Virus record (IMG/VR): IMGVR_UViG_2061766007_000047
Span: 1-64,000 of that record
Reading direction: 5' to 3' (one strand)
DNA from: a virus
Taxonomy: Duplodnaviria; Caudoviricetes
DNA: 64,000 nucleotides
A program made the position numbers and the translations under genes. This document shows, piece after piece, positions 2,022-63,088 of the stretch. The notes beneath the pieces are model-generated. The model did no database searches and had not been told where the DNA came from. It saw nothing but the letters and a program-made list of their open reading frames with translations. The stretch's first letter is position 1; each line of letters opens with the position of its first letter.

Positions 2022-4238
2022 TTAACTAATTGTTTCGTTTATTCTCACTCTTCCTACAATAGCCTTAGATAAGGTTGCATCTGTTTGATACCAAGTCCTT
2101 CTTCCAAGAAGACTACAAGCAAATTCCATACCTTGACTTGTAGTAATTGTTTCTTCTTCTATTCGAATTTCGTTATAGGCAACAAAATGATTTTCAAGAT
2201 AAATTAAATCATCTGCATCAAGAATAGGGTCGCCACGATAAACAAGATTATATTCTAAATCATCATCGTAATAATCTTTAAGCCATGCGCCTTGTGATTT
2301 CGCCATTTGTTGCGAACCGATAAGTGGATTTTGCGAATTTTTCTCAACGCCTTTCTCATGTATAGGAACGGTTAATATATTGTCGGTCACATTAAATGGT
2401 TTTGCATACACCTCAATTTCCTGTTCTGAATCAGATTCAACTACAAGATAATACGCTCCGCTTTCCTTGATAGTTCCTCCACTTATTTCATAATCATAAT
2501 AAGGTGAATCAAGAACGATAGTATTTTCTCCTACTGTTGCATCCACAGATGCAATACTAGCACCATACTCGTTCTCGCCTGTTTTTATTTCTGCTGTTTC
2601 ACCACCTTCTTCATTAGGAACATAATCTACATATACATAAGTGCCGTTGTTTGTTCCCTTTGTAGTATCTTCGTATGTATAAGAATAGATATGAACATTA
2701 AGATTAGATACCCTTTCTAAAGAAGTGGCAACAGGAGCGTGTTTTAATTCATGGTATGTCAACTCATAATCAATATATCCATTGAGTTGAATGTTATTCA
2801 GATGAATTCTTTGATTAGGCATTGCGCTATTAAAGATTATTTTAAGAGCATCAATAATTCCATCGTAGGTATAAACAGTTGATATTGCTAAATTTGTAAT
2901 GGTTTCGCTTGATACTTCTGTTCCTGCAAGATAAAGTTTTACGGTAACAGAAGTGGGAATAACAACAGCAAAATTCAAAAACAGTTGGCTGATATGATAT
3001 TCAGATTTAAAAGAAACATTTATGTTAGGGTTATTCGAAAATTGCCCGTTGCTATCTGCTAATTCAGATGAAACAAATCCAACATACATGAATGATTCTT
3101 CTTCGGGCAAAAATGTCAAAGAACCATCGGCTAAAGCGTAGTTATGTTCTGCATCAGCATAGTTGAATAAGGAATTGTCATCGAATATAGAAGCGGGAAT
3201 AGAATATGAAGTTGCTCCCGTAAACGACACATCGCCTACAAAACTAGGTCTACTTGCATTCTTTATGCAAATTATTCCATCTCTGTCCTCATAAAGAGTA
3301 CATTCACAAGCATTTGCAATCATTTGCAAAGCTTCACGATGGGTACAAACAGGGATTGGGTTAAATATCCGAACTCTTGCTAAAGAAGGGTCTAAATCAA
3401 AATTAGTAACTCCTGCATCTGCAAAGACATTTTGCGCCAATACTGTAGCTGAAATACCCTGTGGATAATACTGCCCTTTATAATACTGTCCATCTAAATA
3501 ATCCAAATATCCCGTACAAGAAAACTTCGCTTGATAGTCGTCACTAGACCAAGACTTTAAGAGCAATTTGCCACCCTTAATCTTATAAATTGAACCATCT
3601 GACATATCGCGCCCATATTCATAAGTAATTTCCTGTTTTTCTTGGATATAATCCGCATAACCATAAGGATTATCCTTATTGAACATATGAAGTCTGTTAT
3701 CAATAGCAAAATCAAATTTTTTTACAGGAAGTTCATTTGAAATATGGTCTACAACATTACTTCTTTGGGTACTCATAATTTGTGTATTTGAGAATTGTAA
3801 TCCAATCCCAAATAAGATTGACTTTAAGCTTAATTTCCCGCTGTCGGGAGTTATTTTAAGGTAATGACAATTAGTATATCCGTCATCAATTCTAAACTCG
3901 CCATCTTCGCCAATGGTATAAGTTTCTGTCTTTGTCCCATTGGTTACAGTAATGCTGTTAGGTGTTGTCAAACCGAATTGAATGGTTAATCCTGCAATGT
4001 TATTCTCATAACCATCAAATTCAAATTGTATATGTCCATCGTTTTCAGATGAAGTAACGACATAAGGTGAATTTGAACCATCATAAAGATGTTCTTCATT
4101 TCCACTAAAAGAAGAAGTGATATGCGCATTTCTTTGAGCATCGTTGTTAATTAAGCCAATATAAACCCATATATAAGATGCTCCACGAAGGGGCAACCTC
4201 ATTTCCTGCCTGTATTGTTCGGTAGTGTATTGCATCAC
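2022..4238 (-). CDS. Baseplate/tail protein
   Basis: 738 aa, beta-rich; HREALQMIANACECTLYEDRDGII and YRGDPILDADD motifs typical of siphovirus tail-hub proteins; follows the Dit-like gene. Confidence 0.7.
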   Translation of the reverse strand: MMQYTTEQYRQEMRLPLRGASYIWVYIGLINNDAQRNAHITSSFSGNEEHLYDGSNSPYVVTSSENDGHIQFEFDGYENNIAGLTIQFGLTTPNSITVTNGTKTETYTIGEDGEFRIDDGYTNCHYLKITPDSGKLSLKSILFGIGLQFSNTQIMSTQRSNVVDHISNELPVKKFDFAIDNRLHMFNKDNPYGYADYIQEKQEITYEYGRDMSDGSIYKIKGGKLLLKSWSSDDYQAKFSCTGYLDYLDGQYYKGQYYPQGISATVLAQNVFADAGVTNFDLDPSLARVRIFNPIPVCTHREALQMIANACECTLYEDRDGIICIKNASRPSFVGDVSFTGATSYSIPASIFDDNSLFNYADAEHNYALADGSLTFLPEEESFMYVGFVSSELADSNGQFSNNPNINVSFKSEYHISQLFLNFAVVIPTSVTVKLYLAGTEVSSETITNLAISTVYTYDGIIDALKIIFNSAMPNQRIHLNNIQLNGYIDYELTYHELKHAPVATSLERVSNLNVHIYSYTYEDTTKGTNNGTYVYVDYVPNEEGGETAEIKTGENEYGASIASVDATVGENTIVLDSPYYDYEISGGTIKESGAYYLVVESDSEQEIEVYAKPFNVTDNILTVPIHEKGVEKNSQNPLIGSQQMAKSQGAWLKDYYDDDLEYNLVYRGDPILDADDLIYLENHFVAYNEIRIEEETITTSQGMEFACSLLGRRTWYQTDATLSKAIVGRVRINETIS

Positions 4239-18640: not shown

Positions 18641-19048
18641 TTACTCATTGAAAAAGTTTTTGAAAATATCGTCAGCGGTAAAATCAGTATGTTCTTCTTT
18701 GGGCTGATTTAAGTGTTGGTATTTGTCGCACTCTTCCTTAAGGTCACAATTTTCGCAATCCTCGCAATCAATCGTATTCTCCAACATCTCCTTAAATTCA
18801 TCGGGAGTCATTGTTCCACCATTTACGATTTTCACGTTAGTTCCTTCAAGACCAATCTCTAACACTTCAAGAATATCTACAGGGTCTAACTTGTCATGAT
18901 GAATGCATTGTTGAATGATGTAACTAATATCAGCCATGAGTTCTGTTCTATCGCCTTGTATCTTTGTTATTCCGTGGTCGCAAAAAATCATTATTTTATC
19001 TCCATTAGTCCAAAAAATTCTTTCCGTACCTTTCAATCCAATCCTCAA
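18641..19048 (-). CDS. Hypothetical protein
   Basis: ORF in recombination operon; start uncertain. Confidence 0.55.
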   Translation of the reverse strand: MRIGLKGTERIFWTNGDKIMIFCDHGITKIQGDRTELMADISYIIQQCIHHDKLDPVDILEVLEIGLEGTNVKIVNGGTMTPDEFKEMLENTIDCEDCENCDLKEECDKYQHLNQPKEEHTDFTADDIFKNFFNE

Positions 19049-19319
19049 CAGTTTTCCCGTAATGTTCCAACCATACTTTTTCTGCCAACTGTTTAAGTTC
19101 TAATTGGTATTCCTGCTGTTGGTGCAATCTCATATGATGATTGTGACAAAGTTGTACGGTCAATCCATCAGCATCGGCGTAGGCTTTTTTATTACCGAAT
19201 AGCATATGATGGGTGTCAGTTCCATCAATGAATCGTCCCATCTTCTTACAGATAAAACAGTATTCATCATTGTTCGGAATTATACTTTTAGCTAATTCAC
19301 GTTGTCCCATCTCGTTCAC
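19005..19319 (-). CDS. HNH-like nuclease
   Basis: CFIC...HH..FG...LC HNHH..LH motif. Confidence 0.7.
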   Translation of the reverse strand: MNEMGQRELAKSIIPNNDEYCFICKKMGRFIDGTDTHHMLFGNKKAYADADGLTVQLCHNHHMRLHQQQEYQLELKQLAEKVWLEHYGKTVEDWIERYGKNFLD

Positions 19320-20618: not shown

Positions 20619-21407
20619 TTATTCCTCTCTAAAAGTAATATTTGAAAACTTTAAGAACTGCCTTACCTGTTCTGCATCAGCTTCACTTACGATAAAATGA
20701 TGCATTCTGATTGCACTTGCTAAATCATCAAGCTTTTCGATTGGCTTCTTTATTTCAGCTTCTTTAACCTTTTCAACAACCTTATTCTTGTCGCTCAGAT
20801 ATTGAGTATTTCTCTGAATGGCTACAGAAAGATTATTCCCACTCTCTAAGTAGGCATCCAAACACTCCTGCTCAACCTCGCTATTGAGGGCTTTAATAGC
20901 ATTGATATCGTTCTTGATTTTCAAGACCATTCCGTTAAGGTCAAAGACGATATCTTGGTCTTTGGTTGAAACATTAAGCCACTTAGGGTTCTCGCTCATT
21001 ACCTTCTCAAAAGGTAGATACTGCTCCAACCCTTGAATATTGTTGTCGTATAAGGTCTTAATATGCTCCTGCTTCTCTCTAGCGCGTTCTTCATCAAATA
21101 GCTTTAATTGACTATTGATAAGGTTAATAGGCGCATCAACAAGTGCAATTACTTCCTTGCAACGACTTTCGAACTTCTGATAAGGTTCATTCCAAGCCTG
21201 TTTTACTGCCTTGCGGGAATCATCCAAATTTGATTTAAGCTTTCTCAAATCAGCCAACAGCTTCTTATCAGCTTTGATGGAATCCTCGGTAACAACATAA
21301 TCCCTGTACTCAGCCATTTTCTCTTTTAATTCAGCTTCAATAGCATCAAGGTTAGTGTTGATAACTCCCGCTTGTTGGTCTACTACCAATTCATTCAGTT
21401 CTGCCAT
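20619..21407 (-). CDS. DUF1351-like coiled-coil protein
   Basis: ADLRKL...RKAVK..WNEPY..FE...PI; usual neighbour of ERF. Confidence 0.75.
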   Translation of the reverse strand: MAELNELVVDQQAGVINTNLDAIEAELKEKMAEYRDYVVTEDSIKADKKLLADLRKLKSNLDDSRKAVKQAWNEPYQKFESRCKEVIALVDAPINLINSQLKLFDEERAREKQEHIKTLYDNNIQGLEQYLPFEKVMSENPKWLNVSTKDQDIVFDLNGMVLKIKNDINAIKALNSEVEQECLDAYLESGNNLSVAIQRNTQYLSDKNKVVEKVKEAEIKKPIEKLDDLASAIRMHHFIVSEADAEQVRQFLKFSNITFREE

Positions 21408-21888
21408 CTTCGTTTTCTTCCTCTCCTAAAATATCTGCCCTTATGTCTTCAATAGCTTTGAAAACAGGTGCAAATTCTGTTAGATTTTCGTACTTCTGCA
21501 TAAAGGATTGCATTTCTCTATACGCTCGGCGTAAAATAATATCTTTTGTATCGGGATTAGAAAAAGCTGTTTCAGCATTGATAAAGCGACCTTTTCTCTC
21601 GGTATCAGACACGTTGTAGTACGCTCTGATTTTTCTAGGCTTCTGTTCCTTTTCAACCTCAATAGCAAGGTTGATTATCACGTTTGTTGCCTGTGTAAGC
21701 CTGTATTTATGCCCTGCTACAGCATCATCCCACTCAAAAAGTTCGTGCAATGGGGATTCTTCGGGTTCTGCATTCTGTAAAAGCAGTTCAGAAGTAACCT
21801 TCCCATATTCCTTTTCGATTTTTTCAAACTCATGTCCTACTGTTTCAGCAGGAACACTAAATTGGTACATTTTCCACGAATAAACCAT
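21391..21888 (-). CDS. Conserved phage protein (SPLHELFEWDD motif); candidate accessory of the array locus
   Basis: 165-aa ORF co-oriented downstream of the array. Confidence 0.7.
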   Translation of the reverse strand: MVYSWKMYQFSVPAETVGHEFEKIEKEYGKVTSELLLQNAEPEESPLHELFEWDDAVAGHKYRLTQATNVIINLAIEVEKEQKPRKIRAYYNVSDTERKGRFINAETAFSNPDTKDIILRRAYREMQSFMQKYENLTEFAPVFKAIEDIRADILGEEENEDGRTE

Positions 21889-21914: not shown

Positions 21915-22115
21915 TTATTTTGTGTAAAGCATCATTTTGGTTTTTCCAAGTAATGAGAATCCAATAACTTCTCTATCGCCATAATTCTTACGCACAACGT
22001 TTTTATCAGCTTCAATAAGAATGCTTGGTGAACTCATAAAACCTGTTTTATTTGCATCAACAACAGCAAACATAACACCTTGCATATCTAGCTTTGTAAA
22101 CTCCAAAACTGTCAT
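21915..22115 (-). CDS. Small hypothetical protein immediately downstream of the array
   Basis: AAGGAG RBS just after the last GGCAGTT anchor. Confidence 0.65.
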   Translation of the reverse strand: MTVLEFTKLDMQGVMFAVVDANKTGFMSSPSILIEADKNVVRKNYGDREVIGFSLLGKTKMMLYTK

Positions 22116-22134: not shown

Positions 22135-22820
22135 AACTGCCAAGCCAAGCCACAACGTAACTGACCTCGACTAAACCCGCCGTACCCAAACTGCCTTACC
22201 TTACGAGAACCCAACAAGCCTTACCACAACTTGCCTTAACGCGCCATAACTGCCACAACTCGACTAACCTCACGTAGCCAAACCTCAACTCAACTAACCT
22301 TAACTGCCAAACCGAACCAAACCGAACCGTAACAGAACATAACACAACGAACCTCAACTGCCACACCAAGCCTTATCTGACCCGACAATAACGCGCCGTT
22401 CCTTAACTAGCCATAACCCAACTGCCTTACCACAACGTACCTAACCTCACCTAGCCTAAACAGACCCGAACCCACCTTGACTCACCTCAACTGCCGAACC
22501 CAACGTAACCATACCAAAGCCCACCATAACGAACCATACCAAAACTGCCTTACCTAAACAAAGCTTAACTAAACGTACCCAAACGTACCTCACCATAACT
22601 GCCAAAACTAACCGCAACTTGCCCTAACTCAGCAGAACTCACCTCGCCTTGCAGTACCTTACCGCGCCTAACCACGACTAGCCTAACACTACCTTAACTG
22701 CCAAATCTTTAGGTTATGTGGGATGCAATAAGCACCCCACAACCTTCAAACGCACCATAACTGACCGCGACTCGACAGAACATACATGACCCGAACTTAC
22801 CGCACCTTACCTCAACTGCC
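22135..22820 (-). ncRNA. Putative guide-RNA array: 10 units of GGCAGTT anchor + alternating NN and GGY/GTY (VIPR-like)
   Basis: + strand AACTGCC at 22135, 22189, 22248, 22302, 22356, 22420, 22489, 22543, 22597, 22696, 22814; between them a strict 5-nt period, mostly NN-ACC/GCC/AAC/GAC; no ORF >=60 aa. Confidence 0.85.
22711..22745 (-). other. Stem-loop between array units I and II
   Basis: AGGUU-GUGGG-G-UGC(UUAUU)GCA-U-CCCAC-AU-AACCU; the G-U pair favours the minus-strand RNA. Confidence 0.75.
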
Positions 22821-22827
22821 AAACCAC

Positions 22828-23505
22828 TTAGTTATTGACCTCTTCACTTGACTCAATGTGATAACGCCCGAAAATACCGTCTTTTTCGGCTCTCCACTCG
22901 CCAAGACCGCATGAATAGCCACCTGCGTTGATTATGTTAAGTATCTGTTCAAGCGTTAATACTCCCGACTTGTTGTAACTTACAACGATATCCGCGTACC
23001 AATCCTTAAACTCTGCACGATAGCGTAAATCCGCAGTACCCATGCCGATTGTAACGTTGTCTTCACGTATTTCGGGAACACTACCCTTAATTTCAAACAA
23101 TTCTCCAAATTCACTCTCTATAAAATAAGCGCATCTAAGCATTGTCTGATTAGGAGTCCAACCAAGCCTGTATGCTGTAGAATTAGCACTCTGTTTAATT
23201 CCCGTCACAGGGAATCCCCACTTTGCACCATTTTTGACAGCCTGTTCAAAAGCTTTAGGATTTGATTCGGGCTTTGGAGTTAGCCAATACATAGAATTGA
23301 TAAATTCGTCGTAAGGGTCACGAACCTCCTTTGCCTTAGTTACTGTTGATGTTGCTTTAGTCTGCTTATCCAAAATCATCTTTTTGGATTTCTCCGACCA
23401 CGCATGAACAATCAGTGGGCTATCACCCTTAATCCGAATAGATACTTTCTGAATATCAAGTGGTCTGATTTCGATTACACTACCTTCTGTTTTCTTTGTT
23501 GCCAT
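22828..23505 (-). CDS. RAMP/Cas7-like RNA-binding protein (Vipr-like), putative effector of the adjacent array
   Basis: N-terminal strand IRIKGDSPLIVH, FPVTGIKQS, C-terminal Gly-rich loop GGYSCGLGEWRAEKDGIFGRY; array begins 7 nt after the stop. Confidence 0.7.
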   Translation of the reverse strand: MATKKTEGSVIEIRPLDIQKVSIRIKGDSPLIVHAWSEKSKKMILDKQTKATSTVTKAKEVRDPYDEFINSMYWLTPKPESNPKAFEQAVKNGAKWGFPVTGIKQSANSTAYRLGWTPNQTMLRCAYFIESEFGELFEIKGSVPEIREDNVTIGMGTADLRYRAEFKDWYADIVVSYNKSGVLTLEQILNIINAGGYSCGLGEWRAEKDGIFGRYHIESSEEVNN

Positions 23506-23583: not shown

Positions 23584-23616
23584 AAAAGCGGTTAAGGTGC
23601 AGACTTGACCGCTTTT
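23584..23616. terminator. Terminator-like hairpin upstream of the RAMP-like gene
   Basis: AAAAGCGGTTAAG-GTGCAGA-CTTGACCGCTTTT. Confidence 0.7.
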
Positions 23617-23861
23617 TAGTTACCTTTCTTTCTTGTTTCAACATATGAAACCTGTTTGTTTGTCTGAATAATTGATTTGAGATAAACGTTTGTGTCAGTA
23701 CACTCCCTGCTCTCAAATGACAGACTTCCATCCGATGAAATACGGATAGTAAAGTCCACTTGATGTTTTGTGGCATCATCCAACAAAACGTATAGATTTT
23801 TCTTACATCCATCAAAAAGATATTCAATAATGCTTCTTGATAAAATTGGCTCTGTTTTCAT
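23616..23861 (-). CDS. Hypothetical protein
   Basis: 81 aa with GAGG RBS. Confidence 0.55.
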   Translation of the reverse strand: MKTEPILSRSIIEYLFDGCKKNLYVLLDDATKHQVDFTIRISSDGSLSFESRECTDTNVYLKSIIQTNKQVSYVETRKKGN

Positions 23862-25092: not shown

Positions 25093-25112
25093 AGTTCTCC
25101 TTTCTCCACATT

Positions 25113-25198
25113 TTCTCCAACGTGGCGATTTACTTCATCATAGCACATTTTTGGAGAATGTCAAGCGAATTTAATCGCTTTTTCTTCAAATTGGAGAA
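25113..25198 (-). promoter_or_regulatory. Early lytic promoter TTGACA-N16-(TGC)TATGAT with operator-like TTCTCCAA/TTGGAGAA sites
   Basis: -35 at 25159-25164, -10 at 25137-25142; near-palindrome TTCTTCAAATTGGAGAA at 25182-25198 and half-sites at 25113 and 25151. Confidence 0.7.
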
Positions 25199-25562
25199 TT
25201 TCCTAACTCCTACAATCAGTATGCAGAAACCATGCAAAAAGCAAACAGAGATAAGATGGAGCGTCTTTATTTTGGACAAAATAAGATTTCAAAGTCAAAA
25301 TCAAACGAAGCATAACCTGTCATAATGTTATTTACTGAACGGAGATATTTGCGTCCACCCTTGCATTCACTTAATGAACGCAAATCAACACCTGTCAAAA
25401 TGTTAAATAATAGAAAATAACAAATAAAAAACCCACCGCCAATACAGGTAGTGGGCTTTTCCGCACTAAAAACAGAGCAGTTTATTTAGGAGAATTCAAT
25501 AGAACCCTCTCTCGCAGGACAATTATATCATAATTTCTTCACAAAAGAAAGGAGGCTCGTCT

Positions 25563-25640
25563 ATGAGAAAGCATCCCAAAAACAAGCCCATTGGATATGG
25601 ATATGTAAACATACCAAATCGTAAATCTATTATAACATAA
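25563..25640 (+). CDS. 25-aa peptide ORF
   Basis: AAAGGAGG RBS; MRKHPKNKPIGYGYVNIPNRKSIIT. Confidence 0.4.
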   Translation: MRKHPKNKPIGYGYVNIPNRKSIIT

Positions 25641-25768
25641 ATTTAAGACCTGTCAAATAACATACAAAAAGCGTATGTCCTTACCCTTAACATACGCTTC
25701 GTATACCCGATATGAACATATCGAAATTATCGGGGATAACTTGAATCATTGAAATAAATCGAAATTCA

Positions 25769-26109
25769 TTTCTAATCAACAGTTACCGTTCATATCGGAT
25801 GAAGATAGAATAACATAAAAACAGATTAGAAACAAGATTAGAAATTTAAAAAAATAGGTTAATTTACATCAACAAAAAGAAAAGACTTAACCACACAAAC
25901 CTGCATGGTTAAGCCTTTATTTCTGTACTGACTCCGACGAGAATCGAACTCGTGTTACCGCCGTGAAAGGGCGATAAAACGCTTGTCAACGTGTTACAGT
26001 TTATTACAGTTTGTTATAACTGTCAAGGGTTTTAATTGATGTTTTGTATTTTTTGTTACACTCTGTTACACACAATAATATGGGCTTAGATTAGAAAAAG
26101 GATTAGAAA
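25769..26109. other. attP-like site: tRNA-Glu 3' half as core with GATTAGAAA arm-type repeats
   Basis: Core 25929-25973; GATTAGAAA pairs with 12-bp period at 25824/25836 and 26089/26101, inverted copy at 25769. Confidence 0.75.
25929..25973 (-). tRNA. 3' fragment of tRNA-Glu(TTC), not a full tRNA
   Basis: CGCCCTTTCACGGCGGTAACACGAGTTCGATTCTCGTCGGAGTCA = anticodon arm, T arm and 3' acceptor strand; no D arm or 5' acceptor strand upstream; hairpin at 25881-25918 downstream. Confidence 0.85.
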
Positions 26110-30690: not shown

Positions 30691-31674
30691 TTAACCGCTA
30701 TAATTGTAGTAACAATAAACATTATAAGCTGTATTGTAGAAGTAATTTGTTGCCGAAGTCCATGTAATTGCGTTGCTAACCAAACTATTTGTAGAAGTAA
30801 TTACATTGAATAAATTATTTAAAACTGAATTAAACCAAATATTTTTTCTCTTTTGATGATTGCAATTTACAAATATTCCATGTACTCTTAACTCTCTATA
30901 AGTATTTCCTTTTATAAAAATATTTTTACTAAAATCAGAATTCGCAACCAAACAGTAACAATCGTCAACGGAAGAAGGAATTGTTATGTTTTGGTTTAAT
31001 GAATTACAGTTACTAAACATAAATCTACAGGAGTTTACGGAATTGGGAATTATTATGTTTTGATTTAATGATGTACAATTTAAAAACATAGCTTGACATT
31101 CTTTAACGGAATTGGGAATTATTATGTTTTGGTTTAATGATGTACAATTACCAAACATATGATAACAGTTTTGTACAGAAGTAGGTATAACTATATTTTG
31201 GTTTAATAGTGTACAACTAGAAAACATATAACTACAACTAACAACATTATCGGGTATCTGTATGTTTTGGTTTAATGATGTACAATTACCAAACATATAA
31301 ACACAAGTAACAACATTATCGGATATCTTTATGTTCTGATTTAGTGAGGTACACTTATAAAACATATAATTACAATCAACAACATTATCGGGTATCTGTA
31401 TGTTTTGGTTTAATGATGTACAATTACCAAACATATAAAAACAATTAACAACATTATCGGATATCTGTATGTTTTGGTTTAATGATGTACAACTAAGAAA
31501 CATATAAATACAACTAACAACATTATTCCCTATTATTACAGGCTCATTGAGAGTAGCATTATTAGCAAACATATACGCACATGAACCTTTTTGCAATACT
31601 CCATTCACACTTGCAGTATATGTAGCTGAATTATCAACAGAATTGCTTATTGGAGAACTTCTAAATAAAATCAT
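30691..31674 (-). CDS. BspA/DUF285-like leucine-rich-repeat protein
   Basis: About 8-9 tandem 22-aa repeats MFxxCTSLNQNIxIPxxVxxCxY (66-bp DNA repeats). Confidence 0.8.
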   Translation of the reverse strand: MILFRSSPISNSVDNSATYTASVNGVLQKGSCAYMFANNATLNEPVIIGNNVVSCIYMFLSCTSLNQNIQISDNVVNCFYMFGNCTSLNQNIQIPDNVVDCNYMFYKCTSLNQNIKISDNVVTCVYMFGNCTSLNQNIQIPDNVVSCSYMFSSCTLLNQNIVIPTSVQNCYHMFGNCTSLNQNIIIPNSVKECQAMFLNCTSLNQNIIIPNSVNSCRFMFSNCNSLNQNITIPSSVDDCYCLVANSDFSKNIFIKGNTYRELRVHGIFVNCNHQKRKNIWFNSVLNNLFNVITSTNSLVSNAITWTSATNYFYNTAYNVYCYYNYSG

Positions 31675-62571: not shown

Positions 62572-63088
62572 TTAACACCTCGTTTCTTATCCGCTTGTGT
62601 GCTTCAATAAGTTTTTCAACTGACCGATACATAAACGGATTAGCAGGTACACCGCTTGTGAAAGCCCATTTTCCATCTTCGGTTCGGTATCTCCAAAAAT
62701 CCCTACCATCTCCTGTATGAATTATGTATGTTCCCGTATTCCATCCGATGTTATAGGGCGGTGGCAAAGAGTTTAGCCATTCCTCATTGATTCCTTCATG
62801 TGCATTTAAACCAACAATACCTGTACCAAACTCGATAAACTCTACGTGTCCATCAAATACAACAACTCCCTCGGTATAGTCGCCATAATCAATTACCTCA
62901 ACACTCTTCATAAGTGCTATTCCCTCTGCGGGGGCTTCTTCTAAAAGAAACTCTTTTAAGGCATCCATCATAGCTTCGGTAAACTTCTTTGGAAACTCTA
63001 TCAAAAGTCTTTTGTACTCTAAGAGTTCGTTAATAGCATTATCTATACTCGATACCCTTAAAGGATTAACCTTGACTACTTTCTCCAT
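62558..63088 (-). CDS. Neck protein (HK97 gp10-like)
   Basis: FIEFGTGIVG, TSGVPANPFMY. Confidence 0.75.
   Translation of the reverse strand: MEKVVKVNPLRVSSIDNAINELLEYKRLLIEFPKKFTEAMMDALKEFLLEEAPAEGIALMKSVEVIDYGDYTEGVVVFDGHVEFIEFGTGIVGLNAHEGINEEWLNSLPPPYNIGWNTGTYIIHTGDGRDFWRYRTEDGKWAFTSGVPANPFMYRSVEKLIEAHKRIRNEVLSGIR

Follow-up and report, generated by a model that had tools for sequence, protein, structure and literature searches.

What does a RAMP-like protein do in the early operon of a tailed phage when Pfam and PHROG scans find neither a cas gene nor a nuclease gene among its immediate neighbors? We addressed this question for a 225-amino-acid (aa) protein encoded in a window of 64,000 nucleotides (nt), the whole stretch of DNA analyzed here, which comprises positions 1 to 64,000 of IMG/VR record IMGVR_UViG_2061766007_000047 (Duplodnaviria; Caudoviricetes). 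The source record is a 108,491-bp virus genome with a CheckV completeness of 100%. We estimate a probability of about 0.9 that this uncultured 108-kb phage carries a complete system of the VIPR (Viral Interference Programmable Repeat) kind, to which the gene belongs, with the guides encoded directly downstream of the gene.

VIPR systems, which combine the protein Vipr with guide RNAs (vrRNAs) and vipr-accessory (vap) genes, were first described in 2026 preprints, mostly from phages of Proteobacteria, with SUSP1 and a P. fulva prophage as examples (PMC13142463; bioRxiv 10.64898/2026.04.26.720920), and structures of SUSP1 Vipr have been reported (PDB 36pp; 10.64898/2026.04.26.720927). Vipr is a phage-borne ancestral RAMP that forms polymers on vrRNAs, which consist of GGY/NN repeats, with each pentamer bound by one protomer, and the resulting complex recognizes double-stranded DNA through pairing of the NN bases only, skipping one target base per repeat, and silences transcription (PMC13142463; 10.64898/2026.04.26.720927).

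A RAMP-fold protein of the Vipr family

A sequence-only reading of this stretch had singled out the gene on account of an N-terminal strand with SPL-I-H, a central helix start with FP-TGIK, and a C-terminal glycine-rich loop, and all three motifs are present in the 225-aa open reading frame (ORF), as SPLIVH at residues 29-34, FPVTGIK at residues 98-104, and the glycine-rich GGYSCGLGEWRAEKDGIFGRY at residues 195-215. In an AlphaFold2 (AF2) model of the protein (pLDDT 93.2, pTM 0.85), which, like the conservation counts given below, was derived from a 96-sequence alignment of the family, SPLIVH lies on the N-terminal beta-strand and FPVTGIK at the start of helix 101-113, the glycine-rich motif makes up the loop that follows helix 185-198 (the G-loop), and a beta-hairpin at residues 145-166 corresponds to the thumb. 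The presence of the motifs goes well beyond chance. The top Foldseek matches of this model in the PDB are all Cas7-type RAMPs (E 1e-6 to 3e-4, probability 1.0), including Csm3 of type III-A (E 1e-6), type VII Cas7, Cas7-11, and Cmr4, and VIA-align superimposed it on Csm3 with Z 11.3 over 155 aligned residues, spanning residues 16-221, at a root-mean-square deviation (rmsd) of 3.5 A. The predicted fold is that of a single-domain RAMP, in agreement with the RAMP/Cas7-like fold proposed in the sequence-only reading, so that the outcome named there as refuting it, a fold other than RRM/RAMP, did not occur.

Sequence searches led to a different family. A single-sequence search of the PDB with phmmer yielded one significant match, 36pp_D, 'SUSP1 Vipr protein' (E 4.2e-6), and in a search of the PDB with the family profile, the same chain was the only one matched (E 1.6e-13, positions 62-219), with no Cas7 chain among the results. 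Pfam and NCBIfam scans at E <= 1 returned no family, apart from two sub-threshold matches to unrelated ones, and no Pfam RAMP model, and in PHROGs the protein belongs to phrog_4652, a family of unknown function (E 1.3e-23). At E <= 0.001, clusters of the family number 3,029 at 90% identity and 2,578 at 50% identity; almost all its members are metagenomic, and none carries an informative name.

In SUSP1 Vipr, the repeat is held by H17 and D177 on G1, R138 and W178 on G2, and R179 on Y3 (10.64898/2026.04.26.720927). The counterparts of H17, R138, D177, W178, and R179 in the protein studied here are H34, R163, E203, W204, and R205, which are retained in 86, 96, 95 (as E or D), 75, and 96 of the 96 family members, respectively, and the change from D177 to E203 is conservative. 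Five positions, R163, G196, G200, R205, and G213, are invariant in the alignment. Because the sequence matches SUSP1 Vipr and the GGY-contact residues are kept, we assign the protein to the Vipr family and refer to the gene as vipr. Thus, of the earlier assignment to the RAMP/Cas7 group, the fold stands, whereas the protein lies outside the Cas7/Csm3 families proper, with no Pfam RAMP model, no CRISPR array, and no cas genes to link it to them. The activities proposed along with that assignment, namely polymerization on RNA with a fixed periodicity and action by binding and silencing, are those of the characterized relatives (10.64898/2026.04.26.720927; PMC13142463), and by analogy would apply here.

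A punctuated array of pentamers downstream of vipr

The sequence-only reading had further described the protein as stand-alone, and this description did not hold, given that a 685-nt guide-RNA array and a conserved gene for a 165-aa protein lie directly downstream (Table 1). Between the vipr stop codon and the next gene, there are ~700 nt that contain no credible ORF, although two short reading frames (53 and 57 aa) do run through them, and that are G/T-rich on the minus strand. In this region, 28 pairs of GGY are spaced exactly 5 nt apart, compared with 2.7 +/- 1.6 in shuffled sequences, a ~10-fold excess of 5-nt periodicity, and no other region of the 108,491-bp genome is pentamer-periodic. 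No CRISPR-like repeat period was found near vipr.

The array has a strict grammar. The hexamer GGCAGT occurs 11 times on the minus strand, at spacings of 118, 99, 54, 54, 69, 64, 54, 54, 59, and 54 nt, all of which, other than the first, equal 5n+4. The marks bound ten units (U1 to U10) of 10-19 pentamers, nine of them with 10-13 and one with 19, and among the in-register pentamers, position 1 is Y in 92%, positions 2 and 3 vary, position 4 is G in 85%, and position 5 is G in 57% or T in 33%, so that the fixed bases read G-K-Y. The pentamer register shifts by 4 nt at every unit boundary. In arrays described as 'staggered' in a figure legend of the original report, adjacent vrRNAs overlap by 1 nt, the end of one being the start of the next (Fig. 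S18 legend, PMC13142463), and such an overlap of neighboring vrRNAs would yield exactly the 5n+4 spacing.

Units 2-10 abut directly at the GGCAGT marks, without tails. U1 differs in having a tail with a hairpin (positions 22717-22741; dG -23.3 kcal/mol, z -3.6), and the equivalent tail in a related phage (L002, see below) forms a hairpin of differing sequence (z -4.7). U2, in which no 4-nt step interrupts the register, could be a single long guide, or two guides whose boundary mark has been lost. An Rfam scan of the array found no family, and no hammerhead ribozyme between the units.

Array grammar persists while the guides turn over

The locus recurs in other phages at a wide range of distances. 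In the closest relatives, the phage contigs L002/L003 and L006, Vipr is 86% identical, and both the synteny and the GGCAGT grammar are kept, with spacings of 54, 59, 64, or 69 nt; the NN strings of the L002 and L006 arrays are mostly unlike those of the window array. One guide is common to all three arrays (window U4, L002 U3, and L006 U1), and in this guide 9 NNs are unchanged although the G-K positions have shifted between GG and GT, indicating that selection acts on the NNs. No NN of the window array is CC, but an exclusion of CC from these positions does not hold, given that ~2.0 would be expected (P(0) = 0.13) and that the L002 array has two. Farther afield, a Clostridia metagenome-assembled genome (MAG; L007) holds a 63%-identical vipr copy with an array of three units.

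Homologs of Vipr with ~36% identity are encoded by cultured phages of Mycobacterium (Donkeykong, Brocalys, Saal, and others) and Gordonia (UmaThurman and Pipp). In the two that we inspected, Donkeykong and UmaThurman, strong GGY/NN arrays adjoin the vipr homolog and are annotated as protein-coding genes; judging from their repeat pattern, these two annotated genes are probably vrRNA arrays miscalled as ORFs. A 4-nt GGCA step is also found in both of these arrays and in that of another locus, L074, the Vipr of which is 39% identical. Given that the Mycobacterium and Gordonia phages with arrays are cultured, the system is directly testable there.

Guides match genes of foreign mobile elements in codon phase

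We decoded the guides into the published query form, NN-x-NN-x, with a 1-nt skip. In the phage's own genome, no guide scored above shuffled-guide controls, and perfect scores were obtained only at a skip of 3, where the array matches itself.

Among foreign sequences, U9 matched exactly (22/22 specified bases) in 32 viral contigs that represent 20 distinct site sequences, with the differences within the matched span confined to skipped positions. The site consists of the ATG and the next ten codons (MA[N/K]KVKFGLKN) of ORFs of 185-200 aa, preceded by a Shine-Dalgarno sequence, which encode the major tail protein (phrog_88, E down to 2.7e-54; PF06488). U5 has a single exact match (26/26), at L021:3651-3688, inside a portal gene (PF04860, E 2e-135). 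By our estimates, with 4^22 and 4^26 possibilities set against a collection of ~1e11 bases, the U9 and U5 matches are very unlikely to have arisen by chance.

For U4, the first scan used the first 9 NNs, an AT-rich pattern of 18 specified bases, and found ten viral contigs with a site in a gene for a TraG/VirB4/HerA-like P-loop ATPase. The sites occur in two sequence variants, which differ at skipped bases only, and in both of them QYINPMDIN is read from the strand opposite the guide sense; when all ten NNs were used, the score was 20/20 in one element (G005) and 18/20 in another (G004). Three U4 matches, located in a Fringe-like glycosyltransferase gene, were treated as probable chance hits of the 18-base AT-rich query.

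To test the skip without bias, we compared five target records in full with all 25 guides of the three sister arrays, 20 of which had not been used in finding these records. Among those 20, a perfect match was obtained only at a skip of 1, for U7 of L002 (24/24, against a shuffle maximum of 19). This guide matched the nuclease domain (PF20441) of the large terminase (TerL) in two records, at 24/24 and 23/24, and U2 of L006 matched, at 19/22 and in phase, the same portal gene as U5. The U4, U5, and U9 sites all lie in coding phase 0, such that the skipped base is the third (wobble) position of the codon.

The target records show no nucleotide similarity to this phage and carry no vipr; accordingly, no mutual VIPR-versus-VIPR targeting was seen here. 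No exact 1-nt-skip match was found for U1 and U6 in viral or metagenome contigs, or for U7, U8, and U10 in viral contigs, and U3, which was scanned against the five target records with as many as 3 mismatches allowed, had no match there. The collection scans covered all the window guides other than U2 and U3.

One 103-kb element, G005 (IMGVR_UViG_3300029549_000154; L066-L071), has perfect matches to guides of two sister phages, namely to window U4 in its TraG-like ATPase gene (20/20) at 62936-62964 and to L002 U7 in its TerL gene (24/24) at 102723-102757. The vipr clade appears to converge on this element.

Gene neighborhood, predicted expression, and an accessory candidate

As identified by Pfam and PHROG scans, the neighbors of vipr encode Cro-like and Xis-like helix-turn-helix (HTH) proteins, CSD, a cell-wall hydrolase, DUF1351, and Erf, and vipr itself lies in the early operon, downstream of the Cro-like and Xis-like genes. 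The early promoter upstream of the Cro-like gene matches the sigma-70 type at 11 of 12 positions; the minus strand carries all the genes from there to the array, and no terminator-like site was found on that strand over this interval. This promoter likely drives both vipr and the array, and early co-transcription of the two is plausible. The sequence-only reading had anticipated early expression as well as the lack of an adjacent nuclease or cas gene; the former accords with the predicted operon structure and strong promoter, and the latter is correct for the immediate neighbors.

The gene for the 165-aa protein, on the far side of the array from vipr, is a candidate vap gene, given its conserved linkage. 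Homologs are located directly beside vipr and an array in six other loci, L002, L006, the Clostridia MAG L007 (E 5e-21), UmaThurman (gp41, E 4e-20), Donkeykong (gp50, E 3e-9), and L074 (E 5e-20), in three gene orders, vipr-array-X, array-vipr-X, and vipr-X-array, where X is the 165-aa gene. We consider it the best vap candidate because its linkage to vipr survives large distances and changes of order. The model of the protein (pLDDT 85, pTM 0.49) matched no solved structure in Foldseek searches (E > 1), and the best VIA-align superposition (Z 5.5) is on a helical hairpin; an Atlas search with the protein found viral hypothetical clusters only.

Two other small ORFs were rejected as vap genes. 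The 66-aa ORF at 21915-22115 (minus strand), between the array and the 165-aa gene, has no tblastn match in the related loci and no Pfam or PHROG hit, and the 81-aa ORF at 23616-23861, upstream of vipr, has no detectable homologs in the related loci. Additionally, a 104-aa HNH endonuclease ORF (19005-19319, minus strand) is found in the same operon, six genes downstream of vipr, after Erf and NinB. It is non-adjacent to vipr, with no evidence of linkage, and is of note since some VIPR types have HNH vap genes.

Table 1. Features of the vipr locus and of two related arrays; coordinates refer to the window unless another record is named, and guide targets are predictions
Feature	Coordinates	Strand	Description
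vipr gene	22828-23505	-	Single-RRM RAMP protein (Vipr); ATG-initiated ORF, 225 aa
Staggered vrRNA array (predicted)	22136-22820	-	685 nt; 11 GGCAGT marks bounding 10 units of Y-NN-G-K pentamers
U1	22703-22820	-	13 pentamers and a ~47-nt tail holding the hairpin
U2	22604-22702	-	19 in-register pentamers, no internal 4-nt step
U3	22550-22603	-	10 pentamers
U4	22496-22549	-	10 pentamers; NNs conserved in two related phages; predicted target TraG/VirB4/HerA-like ATPase gene
U5	22427-22495	-	13 pentamers; predicted target portal protein gene
U6	22363-22426	-	12 pentamers
U7	22309-22362	-	10 pentamers; 7/9 first NNs common to L002 U8
U8	22255-22308	-	10 pentamers
U9	22196-22254	-	11 pentamers; predicted target start of major tail protein gene
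U10	22142-22195	-	10 pentamers; terminal GGCAGT mark (22136-22141) runs into the ribosome-binding site of the next ORF
Candidate vap gene	21391-21888	-	165 aa; phrog_15946, function unknown
Sigma-70-type early promoter (predicted)	25137-25164	-	TTGACA, 16 nt, TG-TATGAT; 11/12 match, extended -10; upstream of Cro-like gene
Donkeykong array (putative)	L072:~2002-2330 (NC_051648.1)		Annotated gp48, 'hypothetical protein'; beside Vipr homolog gp49
UmaThurman array (putative)	L073:~3123-3440 (NC_031249.1)		Annotated gp40, 'hypothetical protein'; beside Vipr homolog gp39

The host of the phage is probably a member of the Clostridia, that is, a Firmicute; the 63%-identical vipr copy in the Clostridia MAG is a hint in this direction. 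In the sister phage, a tyrosine integrase and a CI-like HTH repressor (L002:717-2268) are encoded divergently upstream of the matching early operon, and the window, at 25100-26100, ahead of its own Cro-like gene, is without genes for either. The vipr-bearing phage clade is temperate, now or formerly. Elsewhere in the window, positions 30977-31575 hold ~8 tandem copies of a 69-nt unit (alternatively, of a 138-nt unit), which match at 74-83%, bear no relation to the VIPR locus, and may be iterons or an origin.

Proposed mechanism and alternative explanations

In the model that we favor, the early promoter would transcribe vipr, then the ~685-nt array, and then the 165-aa accessory candidate. The array transcript would give about ten vrRNAs bounded at the GGCAGT marks, where the 4-nt register step fits the published staggered type with its 1-nt overlap. 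Vipr protomers would assemble one per pentamer, gripping the fixed G-K-Y bases via H34, the thumb residue R163, and the G-loop residues E203-W204-R205, and leaving the NN bases exposed. The filament would then pair with double-stranded DNA in steps of two bases read and one skipped, and, with the reading frame of this skip code coinciding with that of the codons, synonymous wobble changes would give no escape. Transcription of the bound gene would be silenced, and the system would act as a weapon with which the phage fights rival mobile elements sharing its host. The assembly of filaments, their binding to DNA, and silencing are extrapolated here from the work on SUSP1. The guides are predicted to aim at virion and packaging genes in unrelated siphophages or prophages (the portal gene, the major tail gene at its start, and, from a sister array, TerL) as well as at a TraG/VirB4-like ATPase gene.

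Several observations weigh against assigning the locus to VIPR. A structured 3' tail is present only on U1, unlike in SUSP1 vrRNAs; this lack of a tail on each unit accords with the published staggered variant and speaks against type II (SUSP1-like), not against VIPR. The second fixed G is replaced by T in about one third of the repeats, a substitution absent from the SUSP1 repeat tests, in which other GGY substitutions abolished silencing, and U2 has 19 repeats, compared with 9-16 in published vrRNAs. On the target side, a few chance matches may be expected for the 18-base scan of U4, by our estimate, and six of the scanned window guides are without a target (U1, U6, U7, U8, and U10 in the collections, and U3 in the five records). 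Furthermore, the vrRNA boundaries are drawn from the sequence grammar, and a host shared by the target elements and this phage is presumed.

The clade of Firmicutes and Actinobacteria phages might carry a VIPR variant with an expanded repeat code and an accessory factor of its own, in which G-T-Y is accepted besides G-G-Y, vrRNAs are cut from an array that is tail-less and punctuated by GGCA, and the 165-aa protein, novel in fold, represents a new vap class required for processing or silencing. We regard this extension as possible but doubtful. If it is true, the hairpin-tailed U1 and the 19-repeat U2 could be functionally distinct RNAs.

Alternatively, the locus could be a VIPR system that mainly regulates host genes or the phage's own program, such that the guides with no identified target are the important ones. 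Seven of the ten window guides fall in this category, the host genome was outside the sequences searched, and vrRNAs can be directed at decoy sites within the genome of the host (10.64898/2026.10.15.759431). However, no guide matches the phage's own genome above controls, and all five targets found for the clade (portal twice, major tail, TerL, and the TraG-like ATPase) are genes of mobile elements, in agreement with the published target spectra of SUSP1 and P. fulva. We therefore consider a predominantly regulatory role unlikely, and interference with competing elements remains the favored function.

The protein could also be an orphan, guide-less Cas7/Csm3-like protein derived from a host CRISPR-Cas system, acting, for example, as an anti-CRISPR decoy for host CRISPR RNAs (crRNAs) or as a poison of host effectors, with the nearby repeats unrelated to it. 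Csm3 and other Cas7 proteins are indeed its best matches among solved structures, and neither cas genes nor a CRISPR array is nearby, as would befit an orphan. Yet the sequence matches in the PDB are to SUSP1 Vipr and none to Cas7, no Pfam RAMP model applies, and the residues that make GGY-specific contacts are conserved. Moreover, phage loci of Clostridia, Mycobacterium, and Gordonia all combine the gene with a pentamer array, arranged in three different orders, and the NNs decode into exact, in-phase matches within foreign phage genes, all of which makes an orphan Cas7 highly improbable.

Equally improbable is that the repeats are a structural element with no guiding role (a G-quadruplex tract, a replication or packaging site, or low-complexity coding sequence) and that the phage matches are coincidental: GG every 5 nt on one strand could conceivably form two-tetrad quadruplexes and the two short ORFs are readable through the region, but a period of 5 nt interrupted by steps of 4 nt cannot be reconciled with coding, the 26/26 and 22/22 matches are far beyond chance, U9 matches 20 distinct sequences whose only differences are at skipped positions, and guides of a sister phage match the same foreign elements at a skip of 1 only.

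If the assignment to VIPR is right, the locus offers a cleanly decodable natural example of such a system, with ten guides of the tail-less array type in what would be one early transcript and with a relaxed G-K-Y repeat. It would add portal, major tail, and terminase genes of other phages and a conjugation-type ATPase gene to the targets of VIPR, suggests that the wobble-proof code with its 1-nt skip also applies at a great distance from the model systems, and nominates a conserved accessory candidate of unmatched fold.

Comparison with known systems

Compared with the type III and type VII effector subunits of the Csm3/Cas7 group, Vipr shares an RRM core, a G-loop, and a thumb hairpin (Z 10-11 over ~155 residues at an rmsd of 3.5 A), and, going by its characterized relatives, polymerization along a guide RNA with a fixed periodicity. 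The differences lie in the sequence, with 12-16% identity and no Pfam RAMP match, in the lack of a CRISPR array and of cas partners, in the RNA step, which is 5 nt compared with 6 nt for Cas7, and in the mode of action, given that characterized Viprs target double-stranded DNA without a nuclease.

The resemblance to published VIPR systems is far more extensive. The locus encodes a phage-borne single-RRM RAMP of ~20-25 kDa with a G-loop and a thumb and with conserved GGY contacts, next to a non-coding pentamer array in which three bases are fixed and two are hypervariable. There are no self-targets, the predicted 1-nt-skip targets occur on either strand with the wobble position skipped and belong to competing mobile elements, and a small gene, here the candidate vap, is linked to the pair. 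Relative to SUSP1, the similarity of Vipr itself is remote (single-sequence E 4e-6), the fixed bases read G-K-Y rather than G-G-Y, ~33% of the repeats having T in second place, and ten head-to-tail units punctuated by GGCAGT replace guides that each end in a ~40-nt pseudoknotted tail. Relative to published VIPR systems in general, one unit is longer, with 19 repeats; the predicted targets comprise genes for the virion and for packaging, along with a TraG-like ATPase gene, rather than a satellite recombinase and lysogeny regulators; and the host is probably a Firmicute, whereas most of the published systems are from phages of Proteobacteria.

As far as the figure legend describes them, the staggered arrays are the closest counterpart, given that a 1-nt overlap predicts exactly the 5n+4 spacing seen here. 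The boundary motif is GGCAGT in this array and GGCA|GG in those of the actinophages and L074. Non-canonical pentamer motifs with one degenerate fixed position also have precedent (bioRxiv 10.64898/2026.10.21.760802). Because precedents exist both for staggered arrays and for non-canonical pentamers, we place this locus within a known kind of system, VIPR, rather than in a new one.

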